A stretch of 64,000 nucleotides of DNA from Oceanispirochaeta sp. (lineage in GTDB: Bacteria > Spirochaetota > Spirochaetia > DSM-2461): contig CAXXOA010000003.1 in NCBI GenBank assembly GCA_963666275.2, positions 317,806 through 381,805 on the forward strand, given 5' to 3'. The first letter of the stretch is position 1. The number at the start of each line of letters is the position of its first letter. A program made the translations under genes and the position numbers. The notes under the pieces are model-generated. The model saw only the letters and a list, made by a program, of their open reading frames with translations. It had not been told where the DNA came from and made no database searches. Below are positions 19 through 64,000 of the stretch, piece by piece.

Positions 19-2016
19 CTACAGTGTGTCGTCATCTCCCAGGGCGGTTGTCTGGAGGGGGCTTTTAAAATAGAAAAAGATGACACCGATAATAAGGCAG
101 TTCACAATAGAGGCGGTAGCAAAAAGATGCCACTGGGGCCGACCCGAGGAAAGATTCCCCACCAGGGAGAAGAGCTTGATGCTGATTGTGAATTTCTCCT
201 CCTGATTCAGAAAGAGCAGGGGAGCCATGAAACCGTTCCAGGCGGAAAGGAAGGCCAGAATCCCGTTTGTGGTCAGGATGGGTAAACTCAGGGGGAGTAT
301 GATTTTTACCATATATTTCAGAGGGGAAATCCCTTCCAGTTCGGCCGCCTCCCTGTAGGCGGGAGGGATTTTCTCAAGATAGGCGATAGAGGTTATCAGC
401 CCTGTGGTCAATGAGTGGTTCAGATAGATCAGGATCAGGGGGAGATAGCTGTCCAGAAGGTGGAGCCTCCGGAAAAGGGCGTACAGGGGGATCATGGAGT
501 GCATTCCCCCGTAAAGCCCTATGATCTGGAGCCCTGTGATGACCGCAAAGACTGTTTTCACTCCCCGCTCTCTGAGAACCAGCGCCGAGGGAAGGACTAT
601 AAACGGAGTCAGTATCCCCGCAGCGGCGGCAATGGCCAGGGTGTTGAGAAAATAGTGCAGTATATTCTCCTCCACCAGGATCTTTCTGTAGTTGGAAAGG
701 GTGGCAAAGGGGGGAATCAGCGAATCAATGGAACAGGCACCGATGCCGGAAAGGCTGAGCCAGATCACCAGGAAGAATATGAGCAGTGAGGCAGCCATAA
801 AGGTATACTTTAAAAGAGCGGTCCCCGCAAGGTGAAGGGTATTCCTGATTTCCGGAAACAGGAGCCGGGAATCTGTCTTTTCCTCCTGCTGCGTGACCAG
901 AAGGGGAATCAGGGCCACCAGGATTTCCGGGTGGAACCCTTCGAAAAATCCGGCTTTGAATATCCAGCGGAGATTGATAAGGCAGTGTACCAGAAAGACT
1001 GTCATATAGGACTTCCTGCTGCGGAACCAGGCCGCCAGGTAGATCCCTCCCCAGATAATGCCCCATATTCCTCCCATAAGAACCTGGGAGACTACAAGGA
1101 CTATGAGGGGGATCCTGTGTGATCTCTTCTCCCTCCTCGCCGCCAGCCATAGGCCCATGAGGACGATCACAAGCCCGGCCAGACAGACTGCATAGGCCGA
1201 TGTTATCCCCAGATCTTCTGTGGTTTTGAACACCTCATAGAGGAATATGTCCAGTGTGGTTGTAGCCCCGATGATATGGCGGTTTGTCATGCCTGATACC
1301 AGGGGAGGGCCTCCGGTGGTCATAAGGAAGAGCAGGTTGAACTCTTTGAAAAACTTGAGAAAGTTGATAATTGTCATGGCCCCGATGGAACCCCGGATTT
1401 GGGGAAGCAGGATTTCTTTGAAAATAATATAGGAGTTGGCCCCGTCGATCCTGGCCGCTTCCGAATAGGACAGGGGGATCTTCCGGAAGCTTCCCCAGAA
1501 GAGAAATGTCATGAAAGGAACTGTCATCCAGAGACTCACCCACAGGGCTGCCAGAAAGGCGGCGACCGGATCGTTCATCAGATCTACAGGGATCCTGAAA
1601 AGAGTACGGAACAGGGAGTCTCCTCCGTCTCCATGAAAAAACGAACGCCAGAGCGGAACCGCTATATAGATGGGAGTTCCCCAGGGTACCAGGAGGGAGA
1701 GATAGAGCAGGGTGATCTTTTTCTTCTTTCTGCTCAGGTACCAGGCCAGTTTCAGAGATATCCCCAGAGAGAGCACCGTGTTGGCAAAGGCCCATAAGAG
1801 GCTTATTTTGAAACTGTATAAAAAACCTTTATCTGAAAGAATATAGAGATAATTGTCCAGGCCCGCTGCTGTCCGCCGGCCGTATATGTCATGGAAAAAG
1901 GAAGTGAAAACAGCTTCGCCGAAAGGGGCTATACCCACAAGCAGAACAATCCCGGCCATAGGCAGGAGCAGGAGGCTGTCTGCGGGAAATCCCTTTCTTT
2001 TCAAAGCTGTTTTCAA
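19..2016 (-). CDS. Fused carbohydrate-type (CUT1) ABC permease with MalF-like and MalG-like halves in one polypeptide
   Basis: 665 aa hydrophobic ORF with two EAA loops (YSEAARIDGA, YREAAELEGI). The N-half has GLDNY and LMTTGGP; the C-half has TLSNY and FLSAWNGF. TTG start. Confidence 0.88.
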   Translation of the reverse strand: MKTALKRKGFPADSLLLLPMAGIVLLVGIAPFGEAVFTSFFHDIYGRRTAAGLDNYLYILSDKGFLYSFKISLLWAFANTVLSLGISLKLAWYLSRKKKKITLLYLSLLVPWGTPIYIAVPLWRSFFHGDGGDSLFRTLFRIPVDLMNDPVAAFLAALWVSLWMTVPFMTFLFWGSFRKIPLSYSEAARIDGANSYIIFKEILLPQIRGSIGAMTIINFLKFFKEFNLLFLMTTGGPPLVSGMTNRHIIGATTTLDIFLYEVFKTTEDLGITSAYAVCLAGLVIVLMGLWLAARREKRSHRIPLIVLVVSQVLMGGIWGIIWGGIYLAAWFRSRKSYMTVFLVHCLINLRWIFKAGFFEGFHPEILVALIPLLVTQQEEKTDSRLLFPEIRNTLHLAGTALLKYTFMAASLLIFFLVIWLSLSGIGACSIDSLIPPFATLSNYRKILVEENILHYFLNTLAIAAAAGILTPFIVLPSALVLRERGVKTVFAVITGLQIIGLYGGMHSMIPLYALFRRLHLLDSYLPLILIYLNHSLTTGLITSIAYLEKIPPAYREAAELEGISPLKYMVKIILPLSLPILTTNGILAFLSAWNGFMAPLLFLNQEEKFTISIKLFSLVGNLSSGRPQWHLFATASIVNCLIIGVIFFYFKSPLQTTALGDDDTL

Positions 2017-2030
2017 TTTACCTGAATTCT

Positions 2031-3404
2031 CTATTCTACAATCAGTTTACTGATATTCCTTACGGCTTTGATTCCATCGGGAACCAGAGCGGCATTCTGA
2101 TCCCAGACAAGCACCAGGGGCCTTTCCCGGTCCGAGAGTTCCGAACCGTCTCCGTAGTACATGGCCAGGATGACATCCTGATTTCCGATCACTTCTGAGG
2201 CATCAAGGGTAATGGAAAAACCGTCTTCCGCCTCCAGAGTCACCTGATTCACACCGTCATAGCGGCTGAACATCTCAAACAGAGGCAGGCCCATATACTC
2301 AACGGAGGATTCGCTTTTTCTGTCGTAGTAGGAAACTACAGATTTATGGGTGGACACTCCGCTCTGCAGGGTCTGGCGATCAAAAACTTCCTTCCCTCCG
2401 GGACCGTCCATGGTTATGGCAAAATCAGTGAAGGATTCCTGACTGATCATGATCTTCTTCACCATTCTGGCTGAAACATGACCTGTAATTTCAGGATTTT
2501 CGGGCCCTACTTTTACAAGACGGATATAACCGGGATCTTCGGGCATATACTCACCGTTCTCTTTGAATGCCAGGATCCAGGTGCCGTTCTCCTGATCCAG
2601 CAGCTGGCTGCCGCTGTAGTCCATCTCATAGCCGTCCATCGCCTGGATTGTGATTGTCATATCCTCTGTCAGGGTGGTGTAGTCGTTTATGAGATCCACC
2701 AGCTTGACCCCGCCCCAGGTGTACTGGAAGTTATTTCCGTAGGAGTTGGTGTAGTTCCCCCTGTCTTCCAGATAGTAGGGGTGATTCTCCATCTCGGAGA
2801 TGGTAAAGGAGGCATTTTCGGAACCGATTGACAGGAGCAGCTCGAAATCGTTGGTTTCCAGAGACACAGGCTGGAGTCCCAGGCTGATGGAGGCAAGATC
2901 TCTGACCCAGTACTGGCCTGAAATATCGCCGATCAGGGTCGGGGCCATGGGGCTGCCGTCCTGACTGATCCCCAGGTAGAGATCCCCGGGATTGAAATCC
3001 GAAGTCATCAGAGTCTGGGCATAGCCGTCCCCGGCGGTCAGGGTCAGTTCATACCCTGCAGTCCATTTTTCCGTCCGGAAGGATGCGGGCATGGAACCGT
3101 CCGCATCATCTACCATGGCGATGATCTCTTTCAGGGGAAACCCCTGGTAACTGTGGAGTTCCCCTTTTTTCTCGTATTCCAGCGGCACGAGAAGCTCCGG
3201 GTTCTGCTGGATCCAGCTGTTCAGGTTGGATTCCCATACTTCATCGTTTCGCACTCCCGACAGCTCTATCTTCCAGCCTTCCCCTTTGGGGGTTGCCTGG
3301 GAGACGGCATCGGGAGTCGTACCTTCATGATCTGTTGAGGCACAACCGGTCAGAACCAGGAACCCCATGAGTGCCAGGAGTCCTGCTGCAAACATTTTCT
3401 TCAT
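2031..3404 (-). CDS. Lipoprotein with three tandem molybdopterin-oxidoreductase-like (Oxidored_molyb/sulfite-oxidase-fold-like) repeats
   Basis: Lipobox LTGC. Three repeats: YQGFPL..AGDGY..VRDLASI, WGGVKL..AMDGY..ARMVKKI and YMGLPL..AEDGF..VRNISKL. RBS AGGAGA. Confidence 0.75.
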   Translation of the reverse strand: MKKMFAAGLLALMGFLVLTGCASTDHEGTTPDAVSQATPKGEGWKIELSGVRNDEVWESNLNSWIQQNPELLVPLEYEKKGELHSYQGFPLKEIIAMVDDADGSMPASFRTEKWTAGYELTLTAGDGYAQTLMTSDFNPGDLYLGISQDGSPMAPTLIGDISGQYWVRDLASISLGLQPVSLETNDFELLLSIGSENASFTISEMENHPYYLEDRGNYTNSYGNNFQYTWGGVKLVDLINDYTTLTEDMTITIQAMDGYEMDYSGSQLLDQENGTWILAFKENGEYMPEDPGYIRLVKVGPENPEITGHVSARMVKKIMISQESFTDFAITMDGPGGKEVFDRQTLQSGVSTHKSVVSYYDRKSESSVEYMGLPLFEMFSRYDGVNQVTLEAEDGFSITLDASEVIGNQDVILAMYYGDGSELSDRERPLVLVWDQNAALVPDGIKAVRNISKLIVE

Positions 3405-3427: not shown

Positions 3428-4921
3428 TCAGGGGCTGTTTTTCAGCTCTTCATCCAGAAGGCTCTGCCCTCTGTCCAGAATCTGTTCGGTCGTCAATTGT
3501 CCTGAAAGGGCGAAACGAAGCAGTTTCCACATGATATTTTTATACACGGTAAAAGATTTCTGCGAGGGGATCACGGTTCCATCCGCAGCGCTGTCCAGCA
3601 TTATCCTGTAGTAGGGGTTTCTGTCCCCGACCAGATTCGCCGCTTCTGTGTTGGAAGGAAGCTTGGTCAGGGCAATGGGAAAGTCCTGCTGGTATCCGAT
3701 TCCTGTCAGATGCCCTATGAGAGCCCGGGCAAGGAGGGGATTCCGGGATTTTCCCGTTATGGCGAATGCTTTAAAGTCCAGCAGGGGAGAGACTTGTTTT
3801 CCGGTTGTTTCATTCCGGGGAAAACCGGCAATACCGAAGGGAATCCCCAGCTCCTGGAAAAGAGGGATTGTATAGGAGGCGGATAGGATGACTGCCGCTT
3901 TTCCCGTGGCAAAATAGGAGGTCATGGCGTCCCTTTCCAGGGGCTTGAAGTAATCAGTATCCGTAAGGGCTGTCAGGTATTCCAGAGCCTGTCGGGTGGG
4001 CCTGTCATTGACAGTGATTGTACCATCCCTGTTGAGAATCTCCTCTTTGCCGAAGGCTGCCTGAAAGGGGATCAGCCAGTTGATGGAGTAGGCATTCCAT
4101 GTCAGGGGCACTTCTACCTTTCCTGTCAGAGAGGACGCCAGGCTCTCCAGCCGGTTCAGAGTCAGATCAGGGTACCGGGAAAGATCAATATAGTCGGGGT
4201 TATAGAAAATGAGCTGCGTATCGTAGTAGAAAGGGGCGGCCCACTGTTTCCGTCCTGACTGAAATGTCCTGTTTCCCCGGGAGTCCAGAGGGGAGGCTAT
4301 CCAATCGGGAATGGTCTGCAGGGCTTCTGTCCGGATTAGTCTGTTCATGTCTCCCGCAGAAACCATAATCAGATCCGGTACATCCCCGCCGCCACGCAGG
4401 ATGGACAGGTATTTGGATGCGGGATCCGGAAGGGTGGTTACATGGATCTCCAGACCGAAACGGGCGGCGTAGGACTCTATCTCCTCTTTCAGCTCCTTTG
4501 TTCCTTCCCAGCTGATCCAGACTTCAAGCTTCGTATTCAGGAGCTTTTCACCTGCAATATCGATGGCTCTGATATCCCTGAATACCTGTCCGTTCTGCCA
4601 GTGAAGATCCCATGTGCCCGGTGAGCCTTCTATCAGGCAGGTCCTGTTTATACTATCGGGAAAGGACGCAATCCGGAGGGATTCCTGAGAACCGCCGCTC
4701 TTGATATTCAGTTCCCAGGCGTCGTAGAGAGGGGGGAACAGATCGCTGAGAACCATACCCCGGGGAGAGTTCTCTCCCGGAAGGGCATAGGCTCTCCGGG
4801 TAAGCTCCCCGTGAGGATAGCTGTTCCGGAGTTCTCCGTTCAGAGTTATGTCTAAGGCGCTCACCGACAGAAGGGGCACGAAAAAAAACACTGTCATGCA
4901 GTGCTTCAGAGTTCTTTTCAT
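3428..4921 (-). CDS. Extracellular solute-binding protein (family 1, MalE-like) with an extra N-terminal domain
   Basis: Signal peptide followed by SBP_bac_1-type motifs (GGDVPDLI, APFYYDTQLIFYNPD, FATGKAAVI). Start moved to ATG 4921, which follows GGAAAGGAAG. Confidence 0.82.
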   Translation of the reverse strand: MKRTLKHCMTVFFFVPLLSVSALDITLNGELRNSYPHGELTRRAYALPGENSPRGMVLSDLFPPLYDAWELNIKSGGSQESLRIASFPDSINRTCLIEGSPGTWDLHWQNGQVFRDIRAIDIAGEKLLNTKLEVWISWEGTKELKEEIESYAARFGLEIHVTTLPDPASKYLSILRGGGDVPDLIMVSAGDMNRLIRTEALQTIPDWIASPLDSRGNRTFQSGRKQWAAPFYYDTQLIFYNPDYIDLSRYPDLTLNRLESLASSLTGKVEVPLTWNAYSINWLIPFQAAFGKEEILNRDGTITVNDRPTRQALEYLTALTDTDYFKPLERDAMTSYFATGKAAVILSASYTIPLFQELGIPFGIAGFPRNETTGKQVSPLLDFKAFAITGKSRNPLLARALIGHLTGIGYQQDFPIALTKLPSNTEAANLVGDRNPYYRIMLDSAADGTVIPSQKSFTVYKNIMWKLLRFALSGQLTTEQILDRGQSLLDEELKNSP

Positions 4922-4926
4922 AGGGT

Positions 4927-5025
4927 CTTCCTTTCCAAACACGGGAGGTAGGACTGTTTCCGGTCCTACCCGGCGGCTCAGTTTTCATGACAGACATCTG
5001 TTTTAGAAATATGAGCTCGGAAGTC
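4927..5025 (-). ncRNA. Moco RNA motif / molybdenum- or tungsten-cofactor riboswitch candidate (RF01055-like), P3-less form
   Basis: The minus strand reads GACUUCCGAG-CUCAUAUUUCUAAAACAGAUGUCUGUCAUGAAAACUGAG-CCGCCG-GGUAGGACCGGAAACAGUCCUACC-UCCCGUGUUUGGAAAGGAAG. P1 is CUUCC/GGAAG, P2 has a CUAA..AUG receptor-like loop, and P4 has a GAAA tetraloop. The 3' CUCCCGUnUUUGGAAAGG matches the E. coli moaA leader. Confidence 0.88.
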
Positions 5026-5045
5026 GATTCTTTTATATCGATTGA

Positions 5046-5947: not shown

Positions 5948-7465
5948 TTAGGGGAGAAAAAACGGGGCATGATTGGCTGTGAAAACAGGAGGGGTTCGTT
6001 TCAGTATGGTCCCCAGTTCGGGGATCTTGCGGAAATCTCTGTCCAGAAAATCCCTGACCTGCCTTCTGTTCCACCCCTCGGGATGGGCGAATTCGCTGTA
6101 AAGGGAGAGGTCTCCGTCATAAAAACGGTTTACCGCCAGGTCCTTTGCTTCTTCACTTCCTATGGGCATATTGAAAATAGAGACATTCAGAAAATCAATA
6201 TTCGCCGCGTTCTCCAGAACATAGTCCCTTGTGCGGAAGGCTTTTTCCCGGTTTTCCGATGGGGTTCCGAACATGATATACACATAGGTCCCGATCCCCG
6301 CCTCTTTCAGATTGGCCAGTATGGTCTGCACTTGATCCGTGCGGATGCCCTTTTTCAGGCTGTCTAGTACGGTCTGATCTCCCGATTCCAGTCCCAGGCA
6401 GAGCATGACGCATCCCGATGCCGCCAGCTTGCGGCAGTAGGCTGCCCCTGTCATTTCGGGAAGGAAACGGCTGAACCCGTACCAGGGGGCTCCCGGGGGA
6501 TGATTGAGGATCTTCTGCATAAACTGCCGGCTGATTTCACTGTCGCAGAGATGGATCAGCCGGGGTTCGTGCCTCTCCGTCAGGGTTCTGAGCTGTTCCA
6601 GCGACTCCTCCGGCGGGTCTTCGCAGTAGGGGTTGTCCTCCCACAGTTCGGAGCAGAAGGTACAGCGCTTCCAGGAACATCCCAGTGATGCGGTAAAGGG
6701 CAGAATTTTTCCGGGAGTGAGATAGTCCCTGCCCGGCTCTCTTTTGTAGATCTCGTCAAAAAAGGGCGTTCCCGGGCCTTTGTACTCCCTGCCTGTAAAC
6801 TTGACTATCTCCTCTTCGCCCGGTCCGTTCTGGACCCTGTGGGCCAGCTGGTAGAGGAACACTGTATCTGAGGGGCCTTTGATCCAGGAGTTGATCAGTC
6901 CCCCGCCGAGCTGTACTTTCACTCCCGGAAAGTTTTTGCGGATAAAACCGCACATGGCCATTCCTGTGAGAGCCTGACTCAGATAGCCCAGGGAAATCCC
7001 CACGAATTTCTCGCCGCTTTTCTGAAGCAGTCCTGTCAGACGGCGGGAAAACCAGGGATAGAAAAGGTTCTCCTCCGGGTGTTCCCAGCTGTGGATCAGA
7101 TCCTTTGAATTCAGCGGTGAAAGCTGAGGATCCTGATAGTTGGCAGGCGAGACAATCACATTCCGGGAGGCTGCAGGAAGGGCAGAGGCTGCCATGTAGC
7201 GGATATGGGATACCTTTTTTTTGTACTCTTCGAAAGTGAGGGGATCTCCTGTGAACTGCAGAAAGTGATCTTTCCTTTTCCGGATCATCAGGGATTTGGG
7301 ATCCTCCGGATTGGCAGGGGGCTGGTCACAGAGCCAGTGAAATCCTTCGAGAGCCCCGTCCAGAAGGGTCACCGGTTCCCCTGCCGTGATGAGGGCTCCC
7401 GCCAGACGGGAGAGGGCTACGGGTGGTTCGCAGTTCCGGACCTGAGGAGGATGGATCAGGAGCAT
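5948..7465 (-). CDS. Radical SAM protein with a probable N-terminal cobalamin-binding-like domain
   Basis: CxxxCxxC motif (CSWKRCTFC) and GLESG. N-terminal LIHPP..PPVAL..LAG, VGISL and LGGG are typical of class B radical SAM proteins. Confidence 0.85.
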   Translation of the reverse strand: MLLIHPPQVRNCEPPVALSRLAGALITAGEPVTLLDGALEGFHWLCDQPPANPEDPKSLMIRKRKDHFLQFTGDPLTFEEYKKKVSHIRYMAASALPAASRNVIVSPANYQDPQLSPLNSKDLIHSWEHPEENLFYPWFSRRLTGLLQKSGEKFVGISLGYLSQALTGMAMCGFIRKNFPGVKVQLGGGLINSWIKGPSDTVFLYQLAHRVQNGPGEEEIVKFTGREYKGPGTPFFDEIYKREPGRDYLTPGKILPFTASLGCSWKRCTFCSELWEDNPYCEDPPEESLEQLRTLTERHEPRLIHLCDSEISRQFMQKILNHPPGAPWYGFSRFLPEMTGAAYCRKLAASGCVMLCLGLESGDQTVLDSLKKGIRTDQVQTILANLKEAGIGTYVYIMFGTPSENREKAFRTRDYVLENAANIDFLNVSIFNMPIGSEEAKDLAVNRFYDGDLSLYSEFAHPEGWNRRQVRDFLDRDFRKIPELGTILKRTPPVFTANHAPFFLP

Positions 7466-7466
7466 C

Positions 7467-8477
7467 TCAGAGGCTCTCTTTTCTGTAGGTCATGGTCATT
7501 TTTTCAAGGTCCCGGCAGATTTCATCTCTCAGATCACGGGGTTCCAGGAGTTCCGCCTGGTCTCCGAAGGACAGGATCCAGCTTTTAATATCCCGTCGTC
7601 CGGATGTGGTCATTTTCAGGATCACCGATCCGTCGCTTCCCAGGGATATTTTCTGATTGGGTGTCCACTGCCTTTCCCGGATATACCGGGACTGGGCGGG
7701 GGCAAAACGGACTGTCACATTCAGAGGTTCATCCCAGTTGATTCCCCAGGCTCCGCCGAGAAGCTGCTGAGGATCAATATCCACCGGTTCTTCAAAGCTT
7801 TGTTCCAGAACCTCCAGGCTCGTGAATCTCTCTACCGCTGTGGTCCGGATGGTTTTCTCAGGCAGGGTCTGGATAAAGCAGTAGAGCCCGTCGTTCCACT
7901 CATAAAATCGCAGGGGGTTGAACAGGATCTCCTTTTTTGTGTTGTTCCGGAATGAGAAATATTCCGCCCTGCAGGTCCGGCGCTCAATGGCTGCGGAGAT
8001 CAGCTCCTCCAGGAGCCTCTCCTTGCCCTCCAGGTTTTTGAATTTCCGGGGAACCGAAAGGAATACACGGGAGAAGCGGTCGATCAGTGTCTCCTCTTCT
8101 GTTTCGAGATGAAACTTTTCCAGTCTTGTCTTCAGGGTCTGTATGGTCTGTTTCAGCTCGGTTTCGTAAAGAGCAGTGCTTCGGGAGAGGATCAGGTAAA
8201 GCACAAGGACTTCTCTTTTGTTCAGTTCCAGACGGGGAACCCTGCCCTTGGGGGCTCCCTGGAAATAGTCCTCCATGATGCACCAGCGTTTCTGTTTTTC
8301 CGGATTCTCCAGCTGCATAAGGGGAAAGCCCAGCTCTTCGAAAGATTCGAAAAGCCGGTATACCGAGCGTCGGCTGATACCCAGTTTTTCCTGCAGGGTG
8401 GCTATTGTTACCCCTGAAGGATGGGAGAGAAGTTCAAAACCGTTGAGAAACTGTACAAGATTCCTGGCTGCAGGCAT
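7467..8477 (-). CDS. WYL-domain transcriptional regulator (HTH-WYL-WCX; PafB/YafY-like)
   Basis: HTH (LGISRRSVYR), WYL core (NPLRF..GLYC..RTTAVERF) and WCX (WILSFGDQAELLEPRDLR). The start could be 8477 or 8489. Confidence 0.9.
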   Translation of the reverse strand: MPAARNLVQFLNGFELLSHPSGVTIATLQEKLGISRRSVYRLFESFEELGFPLMQLENPEKQKRWCIMEDYFQGAPKGRVPRLELNKREVLVLYLILSRSTALYETELKQTIQTLKTRLEKFHLETEEETLIDRFSRVFLSVPRKFKNLEGKERLLEELISAAIERRTCRAEYFSFRNNTKKEILFNPLRFYEWNDGLYCFIQTLPEKTIRTTAVERFTSLEVLEQSFEEPVDIDPQQLLGGAWGINWDEPLNVTVRFAPAQSRYIRERQWTPNQKISLGSDGSVILKMTTSGRRDIKSWILSFGDQAELLEPRDLRDEICRDLEKMTMTYRKESL

Positions 8478-8644
8478 GATTATCCACATTAATCCGAAAC
8501 ACTTTATTGGTAAAGCGTAAAGCTGAATTTTATGTCTTTTCCGTGACTGAGGGGGACTCCGGTTTTCTGCAGAAAATCATTGCTTCCCGGGACTATATTC
8601 AATATTTTATATAAATAGAAACTAAAACATCAGGGAGAGTATCT

Positions 8645-55313: not shown

Positions 55314-56855
<1,542 letters not shown>

Positions 56856-57113
56856 AGCGTGAAAGGTATAAAGACCTTGAGTTTGTACACTTAAAGGCAG
56901 TGAGTCACTGAGTAATCGGTGCACTACTGATCATATATGGCTTGGCTTTCGTCAACTACTTCTAATTTCCCTATGGATCATCCTGCAGGTATTTATGCCG
57001 GTGAGGAATCCGACTCTTTTTATATAAAATCCGTCTTTGGACGGTCGTTTTATCCGGTTTGACTGGATGGAATGCTTTTAAATAGGTAATAGCGAAGGGA
57101 TAAATAATAATAT

Positions 57114-60045
<2,932 letters not shown>

Positions 60046-60219
60046 ATATTATTATTTATCCCTTGGTTGCAGAGGCGAGCAGTAAATCTCTGATTTACGA
60101 CCAGCCTTTGAGATATAATTTTTATTCTGCTTTGAATTGCAGAAATAAATTATATCGTGTTATTTATAGAAATTAGCAGTTAACGCTGTTGATTATATAT
60201 AGTGTGCTTCTGCACACAA

Positions 60220-60327
60220 TCTGGTGGCTATTGCGTTGAGGTTATACCCGTTCCCATCCCGAACACGGAAGTCAAGCTCAACTGCGCCGATGGTACTGCT
60301 ACGGTGGGAGAGTAGGTCGTCGCCAGT
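60220..60327 (+). rRNA. rrf: 5S rRNA (operon 1)
   Basis: CTGGTGGC...CCCATCCCGAACACGGAAGTCAAG...GGGAGAGTAGGTCGTCGCCAG. Confidence 0.97.
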
Positions 60328-60332
60328 TCAAT

Positions 60333-60364
60333 CGCCCCCTGTCTTCGGACAGGGGGCGTCTTTA
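60333..60364 (+). terminator. rRNA operon 1 terminator
   Basis: CGCCCCCTGTC-TTCG-GACAGGGGGCG followed by TCTTT. Confidence 0.85.
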
Positions 60365-60554
60365 AGAAAAATCAGAATATCAGAATAATTCGCATTAGAT
60401 TTGATACGGCTTTTGATGTGTTTCATGTTATTTGCTATATCAGGATCCCGATGCTGTTACTCAGAAAGCCCGTCTGTAAAATAACCGGGAAAACCGGTTT
60501 GTTCAGGCAGAATGGACTGTTTCTGTAATATTGCGAAAAAAATCCTGAAAAGGG

Positions 60555-60701
60555 TTTACAAAGGAAGTCATATTCAATATGATCATCCTCGCGCCTCAAG
60601 AAATTGATGCGCAAATGGAAATGATAAATAACTGCCTTGAAAAGATTTAAAATATTTTTTTTGAAAAGCGGTTGACAAGAAATAGTAGTAACTGCTATAA
60701 C
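60555..60701 (+). promoter_or_regulatory. Tandem sigma-70 P1/P2 promoters of the second rRNA operon
   Basis: P1 TTTACA(60555)-17-TATGAT and P2 TTGACA(60672)-18-TATAAC. Confidence 0.75.
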
Positions 60702-60711
60702 TTGTATCACA

Positions 60712-60728
60712 TTGGCACGGAAGTTGCT
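60712..60728 (+). promoter_or_regulatory. Sigma-54 (-24/-12) consensus in the second rRNA leader
   Basis: TTGGCACGGAAGTTGCT, identical to 54942-54958. Confidence 0.65.
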
Positions 60729-61083
60729 AATGGTTCTTTGAAAGAGTAAATAGAGAAGGGAAATTGAAGTATTTGACGAAAGTCAAGTCCATTGCGAATC
60801 ACAGGCACTTGTGCCGGGGATCGCAATGATTGGTAGTATGTTCGGATCGCTGATCTTTTTAGATTGACGGTCCGCCCACTATGGTTCGGTTAAGGTTTAT
60901 CTGAAGCCGTGACCATTAAGATTCCGTTCCTCGGCACTAGTGCCTGTGGTACGGAATATCGTTAGTTTTCTTTTAGAGATAAAGGGAATCTGACTCACTT
61001 TGAAGCGGATCAGGATGATTACATTCGACAGTATCTGTTTTGAAGCTTTGATACGAACTTATCCACTTCGGTGGATAAATTAT

Positions 61084-62625
<1,542 letters not shown>

Positions 62626-62883
62626 AGCGTGAAAGGTATAAAGACCTTGAGTTTGTACACTTAAAGGCAGTGAGTCACTGAGCAATCGGTGCACTACTGA
62701 TCATATATGGCTTGGCTTTCGTCAACTACTTCAAATTTCCCTATGGATCATCCTGCAGGTATTTATGCCGGTGAGGAATCCGACTCTTTTTATATAAAAT
62801 CCGTCTTTGGACGGTCGTTTTATCCGGTTTGACTGGATGGAATGCTTTTAAATAGGTAATAGCGAAGGGATAAATAATAATAT

Positions 62884-64000
<1,117 letters not shown>

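Follow-up and report, generated by a model that had tools for sequence, protein, structure and literature searches.

We analysed a 64,000-nucleotide stretch of DNA from Oceanispirochaeta sp. (assembly GCA_963666275.2, contig CAXXOA010000003.1, positions 317,806 to 381,805 of the forward strand; hereafter the window), in which the gene at 2031..3404(-) encodes a lipoprotein of three repeats that resemble the sulfite oxidase (SUOX) family and lack its molybdenum-ligating cysteine. The gene stands between those for a solute-binding protein and a fused permease of the ATP-binding cassette (ABC) type, and this three-gene unit, here called the cassette, is headed by a riboswitch of the molybdenum or tungsten cofactor (Moco/Wco) class. 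The cassette is probably a salvage importer for metal-loaded tungsten or molybdenum pyranopterin, with the lipoprotein as its capture module. Its features, all on the minus strand of the window, are as follows.

2031..3404, minus strand: triple SUOX/PruR-fold lipoprotein, 457 aa (open reading frame with ATG start, Pfam, predicted model and profile comparison).
3342..3404, minus strand: Sec-type signal peptide and lipobox, Cys21 (from sequence; Cys kept in 99/120 homologues).
3291..3311, minus strand: D-x-x-S-x-A-T motif, aa 32-38, a low-confidence tether (85/120 homologues; resembles the ApbE flavinylation motif without its Gly).
2871..3281, minus strand: repeat 1, aa 42-178 (D126-G-Y128, K79 at the Cys position, R168).
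2436..2852, minus strand: repeat 2, aa 185-323, the best conserved (D257-G-Y259, D290, R295, H309, S311, R313, M314; T219-S221 at the Cys position).
2034..2429, minus strand: repeat 3, aa 326-457 (D394-G-F396, R362 at the Cys position, K446, R449).
3428..4921, minus strand: MalE-like solute-binding protein with an extra N-terminal domain of ~105 aa (PF01547; start probably ATG 4921, not GTG 4942).
19..2016, minus strand: fused MalF/MalG-type ABC permease, 665 aa (two PF00528 stretches; two EAA loops, motifs at aa 186 and 556).
4912..5034, minus strand: Moco/Wco riboswitch RF01055 with the P3 stem absent (77.6 bits, E 4.6e-17).

The only cysteine of the 457-aa lipoprotein, C21, lies within the lipobox L-T-G-C behind the Sec-type signal, as the initial annotation of the sequence had it, and inspection of the signal found no twin-arginine (RR) motif. 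Sec-type export means that the lipoprotein is predicted to bind its ligand outside the cytoplasm. The annotation had placed the protein on display outside the membrane; the lipobox supports an extracytoplasmic lipid anchor and does not by itself show outer-surface display. A homologue search with the lipoprotein gave 232 matches at E <= 0.001, of which 120 were listed, and homologue counts throughout refer to those 120; the taxon-named homologues among the matches listed are Spirochaetia, and Oceanispirochaeta crateris is among the species with annotated homologues. The description 'Cys-less' holds for this product and not for the whole family, in which 43/120 homologues carry a Cys-His pair at positions 352-353.

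The motif pattern that the annotation had read three times is present in each repeat, with L rather than I as the last residue in repeat 3, and profiles of the single repeats, built on 113 aligned homologues out of the 120, agree (profile-profile probability 98.7%, E 4e-16, between repeats 1 and 3; 94.0%, E 1e-7, between repeats 2 and 3; 66.5% between repeats 1 and 2). PF00174 exceeds its cut-off in repeat 2 alone (aa 222-327, 36.9 bits, E 3.4e-9). The SUOX fold of repeat 1 is nonetheless supported at the sequence level, by an Atlas feature score of 0.90 to PF00174 clusters and by a match to Cys-bearing single-domain relatives at 75.9% profile probability. Conservation is uneven and highest in repeat 2 (columns at least 95% conserved: 29/139 in repeat 2, 19/132 in repeat 3, 14/137 in repeat 1), so the multivalent binding proposed in the annotation, and three equal sites, are possibilities only.

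The AlphaFold model of the lipoprotein (mean predicted local distance difference test, pLDDT, 89.1; predicted template modelling score, pTM, 0.70) had sulfite dehydrogenase and sulfite oxidase at the top ranks of a Foldseek search, with PruR among them. When the predicted model was used in a wide structural search, repeat 2 matched PruR 7kp2 (Z 15.8, root-mean-square deviation (rmsd) 2.6, 133 residues aligned) and repeat 3 matched PruR 7rkb (Z 15.1, rmsd 2.4, 126 aligned), alongside sulfite dehydrogenase 2blf (Z 15.1) and MsrP 1xdq (Z 11.8), with unrelated folds from Z 5.2. PruR (Z 15.8) is the closest solved fold to the repeats, and the SUOX/MsrP-like fold proposed in the annotation was supported for repeats 2 and 3 at Z 11.8-15.8. 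This assignment rests on the predicted model because protein and profile sequence searches against solved structures returned nothing significant (PruR 7kom at E 0.44 only).

The idea of a SUOX-fold binder without the cysteine has a known precedent in PruR. Two papers describe it as a secreted SUOX fold without the molybdenum-ligating cysteine, in which small pterins are sandwiched by Tyr104 and Trp160 (PMC11194511; PMC13259868); monapterin and neopterin are among its ligands (PMC11194511). As the top fold match, PruR lends some weight to a different reading, in which the cassette imports a substrate of tungsten or molybdenum enzymes or a simple pterin (candidates are purines, pterins, sugars, aldehydes and fragments of folate). 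The ligands of the repeats would then be pterins without phosphate, as for PruR, and the riboswitch would do no more than couple expression of the operon to the supply of cofactor. We regard this as unlikely, in part because of the residues that line the predicted pocket.

The pocket was mapped by sequence alignment, not from coordinates. The place of the molybdenum ligand is taken by K79 in repeat 1, T219-S221 in repeat 2 and R362 in repeat 3, and 0/120 homologues have Cys at those columns, in line with the annotated absence of a catalytic cysteine. The position in repeat 2 was placed to within ~1 residue through a profile of 8 single-domain Cys-bearing relatives. An early alignment had put the SoxC Cys on D214 of repeat 2; this was rejected, as the spacing from the helix Pro and the W-x-G motif, together with the 8-relative profile, led to T219-S221. 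Cys352 was also rejected as a metal ligand, since its place is the end of a helix and it precedes Y370 by 18 residues, compared with ~10 residues for a ligand Cys.

The pterin- and phosphate-site residues, whose retention the annotation had left to be checked, appear to be kept in the repeats. All three carry D-G-[YF] (D126/Y128, D257/Y259, D394/F396), with each D and each Y/F found in at least 118/120 homologues, and in the sequence mapping this motif is the counterpart of PruR N102-x-Y104. R295 is kept in 120/120 homologues, position 313 is R or K in 120/120, and K/R446 and R/K449 are kept in 119/120. In MsrP and SoxC, the motifs P-x-R and G-x-K-x-[VI]-K stand opposite these basic residues in the alignment (MsrP R194/K204/K207-type positions). 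We take MsrP R194 and K207 to be phosphate ligands; the numbering fits the E. coli sequence, and we found no paper that states this. A PruR-like plasmid protein has Trp at the Lys position, and in general Trp or a hydrophobic residue where the repeats keep these basic residues. Thus, the repeats look suited to a phosphorylated pterin and distinct from PruR proper, which argues against import of unphosphorylated pterins.

The same residues would equally suit a metal-free precursor, either cyclic pyranopterin monophosphate (cPMP) or apo-molybdopterin, that is imported and then completed by the cell. Uptake of cPMP would rescue carriers of the cassette that lack moaA and moaC, one of which (G082) keeps moeA alone among the synthesis genes. 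We consider this reading improbable in view of the gene losses described below.

Repeat 2 also has invariant residues (H309, S311, M314, E213) and near-invariant ones (K298, M261, S/T221) beyond the usual SUOX-fold set. They could belong to an active enzyme in which repeat 2 ligates a metal through Ser, His or Met, or to an extractor that strips cofactor from the molybdoproteins of dead cells, perhaps with covalent flavin mononucleotide on the N-terminal tether keeping the cofactor reduced. The D-x-x-S-x-A-T tether motif listed above is consistent with such a flavin, as is the finding of ApbE in 5/5 genomes tested; the Cys-His pair, for its part, occurs mainly in homologues without the motif (30/32). 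However, the canonical ApbE motif D-x-x-[S/T]-G-A-[S/T], as given in PMC12052999, includes a Gly that is Gln here and is present in just 8/85 motif-bearing homologues. A protein exported by the Sec route could presumably not carry along a cofactor inserted before export, and no MsrQ-like or cytochrome partner was recognised beside the cassette among the neighbours annotated. An enzyme or extractor seems to us very unlikely.

In the lipoprotein model the tether (aa 20-37) has pLDDT <50. The motif and the Cys352-His353 pair are largely exclusive (73 homologues with the motif only, 30 with the Cys only, 11 with both, 2 with neither), which may reflect merely two clades. A small gene with the canonical D-x-x-S-G-A-T lies directly downstream of the cassette in two loci (L004, 4780-5193; L005, 14566-15087), and it has a homologue in L072.

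We then considered the company that the lipoprotein keeps. Its gene begins 23 bases downstream of the binding protein gene and lies directly upstream of the fused permease, and the order binding protein, lipoprotein, permease was found on a single contig in 27/29 other genomes. The two exceptions (G194 and G106) break at contig ends; among the 27 intact loci, the binding protein is in two pieces in one and the lipoprotein is partial in another. This fixed place in an ABC importer cassette moves the likely role of the lipoprotein from passive shielding, as first suggested, to capture for uptake.

The cassette has the architecture of a CUT1 importer: its binding protein is of the SBP_bac_1 family, and its permease has two BPD_transp_1 domains, each with an EAA loop. 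The binding protein shares ~22% identity with T. maritima MalE at a TM-score of 0.85, and its only NCBIfam matches, MalE and GanS, are far below cut-off; the best NCBIfam matches for the permease are MalF and MalG, also below cut-off. A MalE-like binding protein would suit import of an enzyme substrate or simple pterin. By NCBIfam it is not of the ModA, TupA or WtpA type, and a separate tupABC lies elsewhere in the genome. Its extra N-terminal domain has the same order of strands and helices as the lipoprotein repeats, with a best profile probability of 49% (to repeat 3) and an Atlas score of 0.75 to a group with PF00174 in 19% of members, which is a lead only; it is possibly a fourth, degenerate repeat. 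A Foldseek search with the binding protein returned a list taken up by MalE.

These data bear on whether the cassette could instead be a fourth type of importer for tungstate, molybdate or a thiometallate, beside ModABC, TupABC and WtpABC. Lys or Arg at the former Cys position in repeats 1 and 3 could suit an oxyanion, the tupABC genes of this genome are headed by the same class of RNA, and a Haloferax plasmid has a short gene for a SUOX domain ahead of genes for a binding protein and an ABC permease. In that element (L060, 1456-3363, Haloferax gibbonsii) the SUOX-domain product has 157 aa and retains the Cys of the hairpin, and its gene lies 4 bases upstream of the other two. Against this, the binding protein belongs to the large-ligand MalE class, and the distribution of tupA described below is a poor fit. 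Of the alternatives weighed here we consider this the least likely.

The cassette abuts a xanthine-dehydrogenase/dihydropyrimidinase operon in two loci (L001 and L003), as might be expected of a substrate importer. It is divergent from an AOR operon in G185 and G194, and mobA follows it in two loci, in one of them with fdhD and formate dehydrogenase as well. In the window, 5948-8489(-) holds a gene for a WYL-domain regulator and then a radical SAM gene that resembles B12-binding methyltransferases below cut-off; elsewhere these are not linked to the cassette.

The riboswitch, which was not seen in the initial annotation, supports the link of the lipoprotein to Moco/Wco. In the covariance model search the RF01055 match is full-length, and its 77.6 bits compare with a gathering threshold of 36 bits. 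The P1 stem pairs CUUCC with GGAAG, and the 3' strand GGAAG (4931-4927) doubles as the ribosome-binding site of the binding protein gene, before ATG 4921. A ribosome-binding site within P1 fits translational shut-off when cofactor is abundant, a state in which an importer of enzyme substrates should presumably be on. RF01055 heads the cassette in 24/28 loci with upstream DNA; it is missing upstream in L001, L002, L003 and L081 (with no weak copy in L002 at E up to 1), and L004 and L028 have no upstream DNA. The P3 stem is absent in 4/4 cassette copies whose alignment was viewed. In the accessible text of PMC2408646, Moco RNAs without P3 are tied to tungsten cofactor metabolism, the E. coli RNA shows cofactor-dependent control, and the regulated genes named are metal transporters, synthesis enzymes and cofactor-using enzymes, with no cofactor importer among them.

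The genome has two other RF01055 copies, which head a tupABC-moeA-moaA-moaC-MOSC-mogA/moaB operon and an Fe-S/AOR operon; the latter could also be read in favour of a substrate importer. The Fe-S/AOR operon (L035, 9368-14602; G000 C1) comprises genes for an Fe-S protein, a YdhV-type AOR, ydhW and fdhD, followed by tatC and tatB. MoaA is short (~270 aa) at L034 8555-9379 (G000 C1) and in 39/68 genomes with moaA; the short form matches only the first ~200/336 model positions and appears to lack the usual C-terminal region.

We compared the occurrence of the cassette with that of tungsten and molybdenum enzymes in 181 genomes of the class with completeness of at least 90%. The lipoprotein matched in 33, of which 32 were counted as carriers: G129 was left out (E 8e-5, 48 residues), and G055 (partial, repeat 2 region) and G078 (two pieces) were kept. 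AOR, a tungsten enzyme, was found in 31/32 carriers vs 48/149 non-carriers, and strong xanthine-oxidase-family matches were found in 32/32 carriers. None of the 72 genomes lacking both AOR and xanthine-oxidase-family enzymes carries the cassette. Xanthine-oxidase-family genes occur in 152/181 genomes overall and moaC in 70.

In 15/32 carriers, spread over 13 genera and 9 families, no moaA, moaC, moeA or tupA was found. Among genomes with a strong AOR match, synthesis genes were lacking in 15/31 carriers vs 4/32 non-carriers (Fisher p 0.0025, which ignores kinship), where 'strong' means E <= 1e-60, a cut-off chosen after the lists were seen. Import of a substrate or simple pterin leaves this excess of synthesis-less genomes among carriers unexplained. 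Cofactor synthesis seems to have been lost repeatedly among carriers, since in each of four genera one carrier has the synthesis genes and another does not (G051/G124, G099/G120, G154/G044, G169/G178). In G209, a single contig of 3,294,133 bases, the cassette abuts a xanthine-dehydrogenase operon with AOR ~20 kb away, and no moaA, moaC, moaE, modA or MoeA/MogA was found (tupA and wtpA were not searched there); its single PF00994 match, a 425-aa frame, was assigned to CinA on the basis of its size.

By known enzymes, the 15 synthesis-less carriers could use neither a precursor nor free metal, because they lack MoeA as well as MoaA and MoaC, and a search for moaE in four of them found it in 0/4. 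An imported precursor would thus meet no known enzyme for sulfuration or metal insertion. The 15 carriers without tupA, with no modA found in the 5/5 tested, might at first sight favour an oxyanion importer; yet they also lack the pterin pathway, so that free metal would be useless to them (WtpA was not searched for), and 14/15 carriers with full synthesis already have tupA.

From the gene order, the riboswitch match, the fold match of the predicted model, residue conservation and genome distribution, we infer a ligand, a hand-off, a transport step, an ATPase partner and a direction of switching. The lipoprotein would leave the cytoplasm empty through its Sec-type signal and meet the cofactor outside. 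In its repeats, chiefly repeat 2, D-G-Y would contact the pterin ring and the conserved Arg and Lys residues the terminal phosphate, and without a metal-ligating Cys the cofactor would be protected yet releasable, with no catalytic site formed. The cofactor would then pass from the lipoprotein to the MalE-like binding protein and on to the fused permease, with transport driven by an ATPase encoded elsewhere, and would be delivered to cytoplasmic apoenzymes of the AOR and xanthine-oxidase families. With ample cofactor, the ribosome-binding site would be masked by the riboswitch, and the operon would be turned off.

Several observations weigh against uptake of intact cofactor. The PruR pocket was reported to be too short for Moco (PMC11194511), and the nearest solved relatives of the binding protein bind maltodextrins. 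No ATPase gene was found within the cassette in 30 loci. The riboswitch is a marker of cofactor-linked genes generally and not of importers as such, because one copy here heads an enzyme operon, and G209 and G210 have no RF01055 match anywhere in the genome. The Oceanispirochaeta genome has its own synthesis operon and can make the cofactor, so uptake would be an option for it and not a need; with this genome, 15 carriers have moaA, moaC and moeA and 2 are partial, and the cassette is not confined to auxotrophs. The cassette and moaC show no association overall (16/32 vs 54/149, p 0.16). Of 45 genomes that lack synthesis genes but have strong matches to the xanthine-oxidase family, 30 have no cassette; these 30 hint either at further uptake routes beside the cassette or at widespread inactivity of the enzymes concerned. 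The post hoc 'strong' cut-off is a further weakness, and most sampled genomes are draft assemblies in which the moa genes form a single operon that one gap could remove.

When 1.84 billion representatives were searched with a profile of the lipoprotein family, 720 matched at E <= 0.001, and 140 of the 149 distant relatives listed (P0121-P0269) have at least 2 SUOX-like repeats, with up to ten. Partner domains among the 33 scanned include SLH, PKD, Ig-like and CARDB, which are typical of cell-surface proteins, and in 90/500 repeats of the distant relatives a Cys, mostly as Cys-His, stands shortly before the W/Y-x-G motif. At the other end of the window, 55314-64000(+) holds tandem rRNA operons (16S-23S-5S, with a second 16S 755 bases on and a 23S truncated where the contig stops), possibly an assembly feature.

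We lean, by a little over even chances, towards a broader view in which anaerobic spirochaetes salvage intact tungsten or molybdenum cofactor by means of an ABC importer that is dedicated to this task, is under riboswitch control and captures its ligand with a lipoprotein of disarmed sulfite-oxidase domains, many lineages have thereby dropped synthesis, and the related multi-repeat surface proteins (up to ten repeats, with S-layer or PKD fusions) act as cofactor 'sponges' in other anaerobes. If so, members of anaerobic communities would trade this cofactor as they do B12 and thiamine, and a protein able to bind so labile a molecule and let it go again could serve as a tool for its stabilisation or delivery. 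Tests of bacterial cofactor uptake can start from the three genes of the cassette and the particular residues named above.

A literature search found no description of the cassette or of a bacterial Moco importer; most subscription journals were beyond its reach, and the supplements of PMC2408646, PMC6147048 and PMC11194511 may list these genes or orphan organisms. A 2021 review states that most organisms cannot obtain Moco by nutrition, with C. elegans the sole known exception to de novo synthesis (PMC9026282), a 2026 review treats the passage of pterins across bacterial membranes as unknown (PMC13259868), and genome surveys describe 'orphan' molybdoenzymes in prokaryotes without the synthesis pathway, with incomplete assembly a possible cause (PMC6147048).

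Among known systems, PruR (Agrobacterium, Vibrio and Klebsiella; 7kos, 7kp2, 7rkb) is, like the lipoprotein, a secreted SUOX fold without the metal-ligating Cys, and its Asn/Asp-x-Tyr pterin site (N102, Y104) is matched by D-G-[YF]. PruR is one soluble domain of ~170 aa with dcpA as its signalling partner, whereas here three lipid-anchored repeats go with a transporter and a riboswitch and no dcpA. PruR has Trp, within a Pro-Trp motif, in place of the Cys, and its Trp160 stacks on the ligand; the lipoprotein has no PW motif, and R or K appears to align with the Trp of the PruR-like protein. With the enzymes of PF00174 (MsrP/YedY, SorA/SoxC and eukaryotic sulfite oxidase) it shares the fold (Z 11.8-15.1), W/Y-x-G, D-G-Y and the basic phosphate positions, and it differs from them in having no molybdenum Cys, no Tat signal, no recognised redox partner and tandem repeats. 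The cassette RNA resembles the 'Tuco' type of RF01055, as covered in PMC2408646, in that it lacks P3 and has the ribosome-binding site in P1, and its host likewise uses tungsten enzymes.

Like MalEFG of the CUT1 class, the cassette has a MalE-like binding protein, MalF/MalG-like halves with EAA loops and an ATPase that would be encoded elsewhere; unlike it, the cassette has a fused permease, an extra N-terminal domain on the binding protein, an accessory lipoprotein, a cofactor riboswitch and only ~22% MalE identity. Riboswitch-controlled vitamin importers (BtuCDF for cobalamin, ThiBPQ for thiamine) place synthesis and uptake under one RNA, and uptake permits loss of synthesis. The cassette shares this regulatory logic, but the class of transporter and the ligand differ. 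C. elegans, in which PMC9026282 describes dietary uptake of Moco, also uses cofactor made by others, but it is an animal and the mechanism there is unknown. By analogy with these systems, the lipoprotein would be a PruR-like, non-catalytic pterin binder that departs from PruR itself in its lack of the Trp and dcpA and from the SUOX enzymes in its lack of the catalytic Cys, in an operon built like a CUT1 importer and regulated like the vitamin importers.

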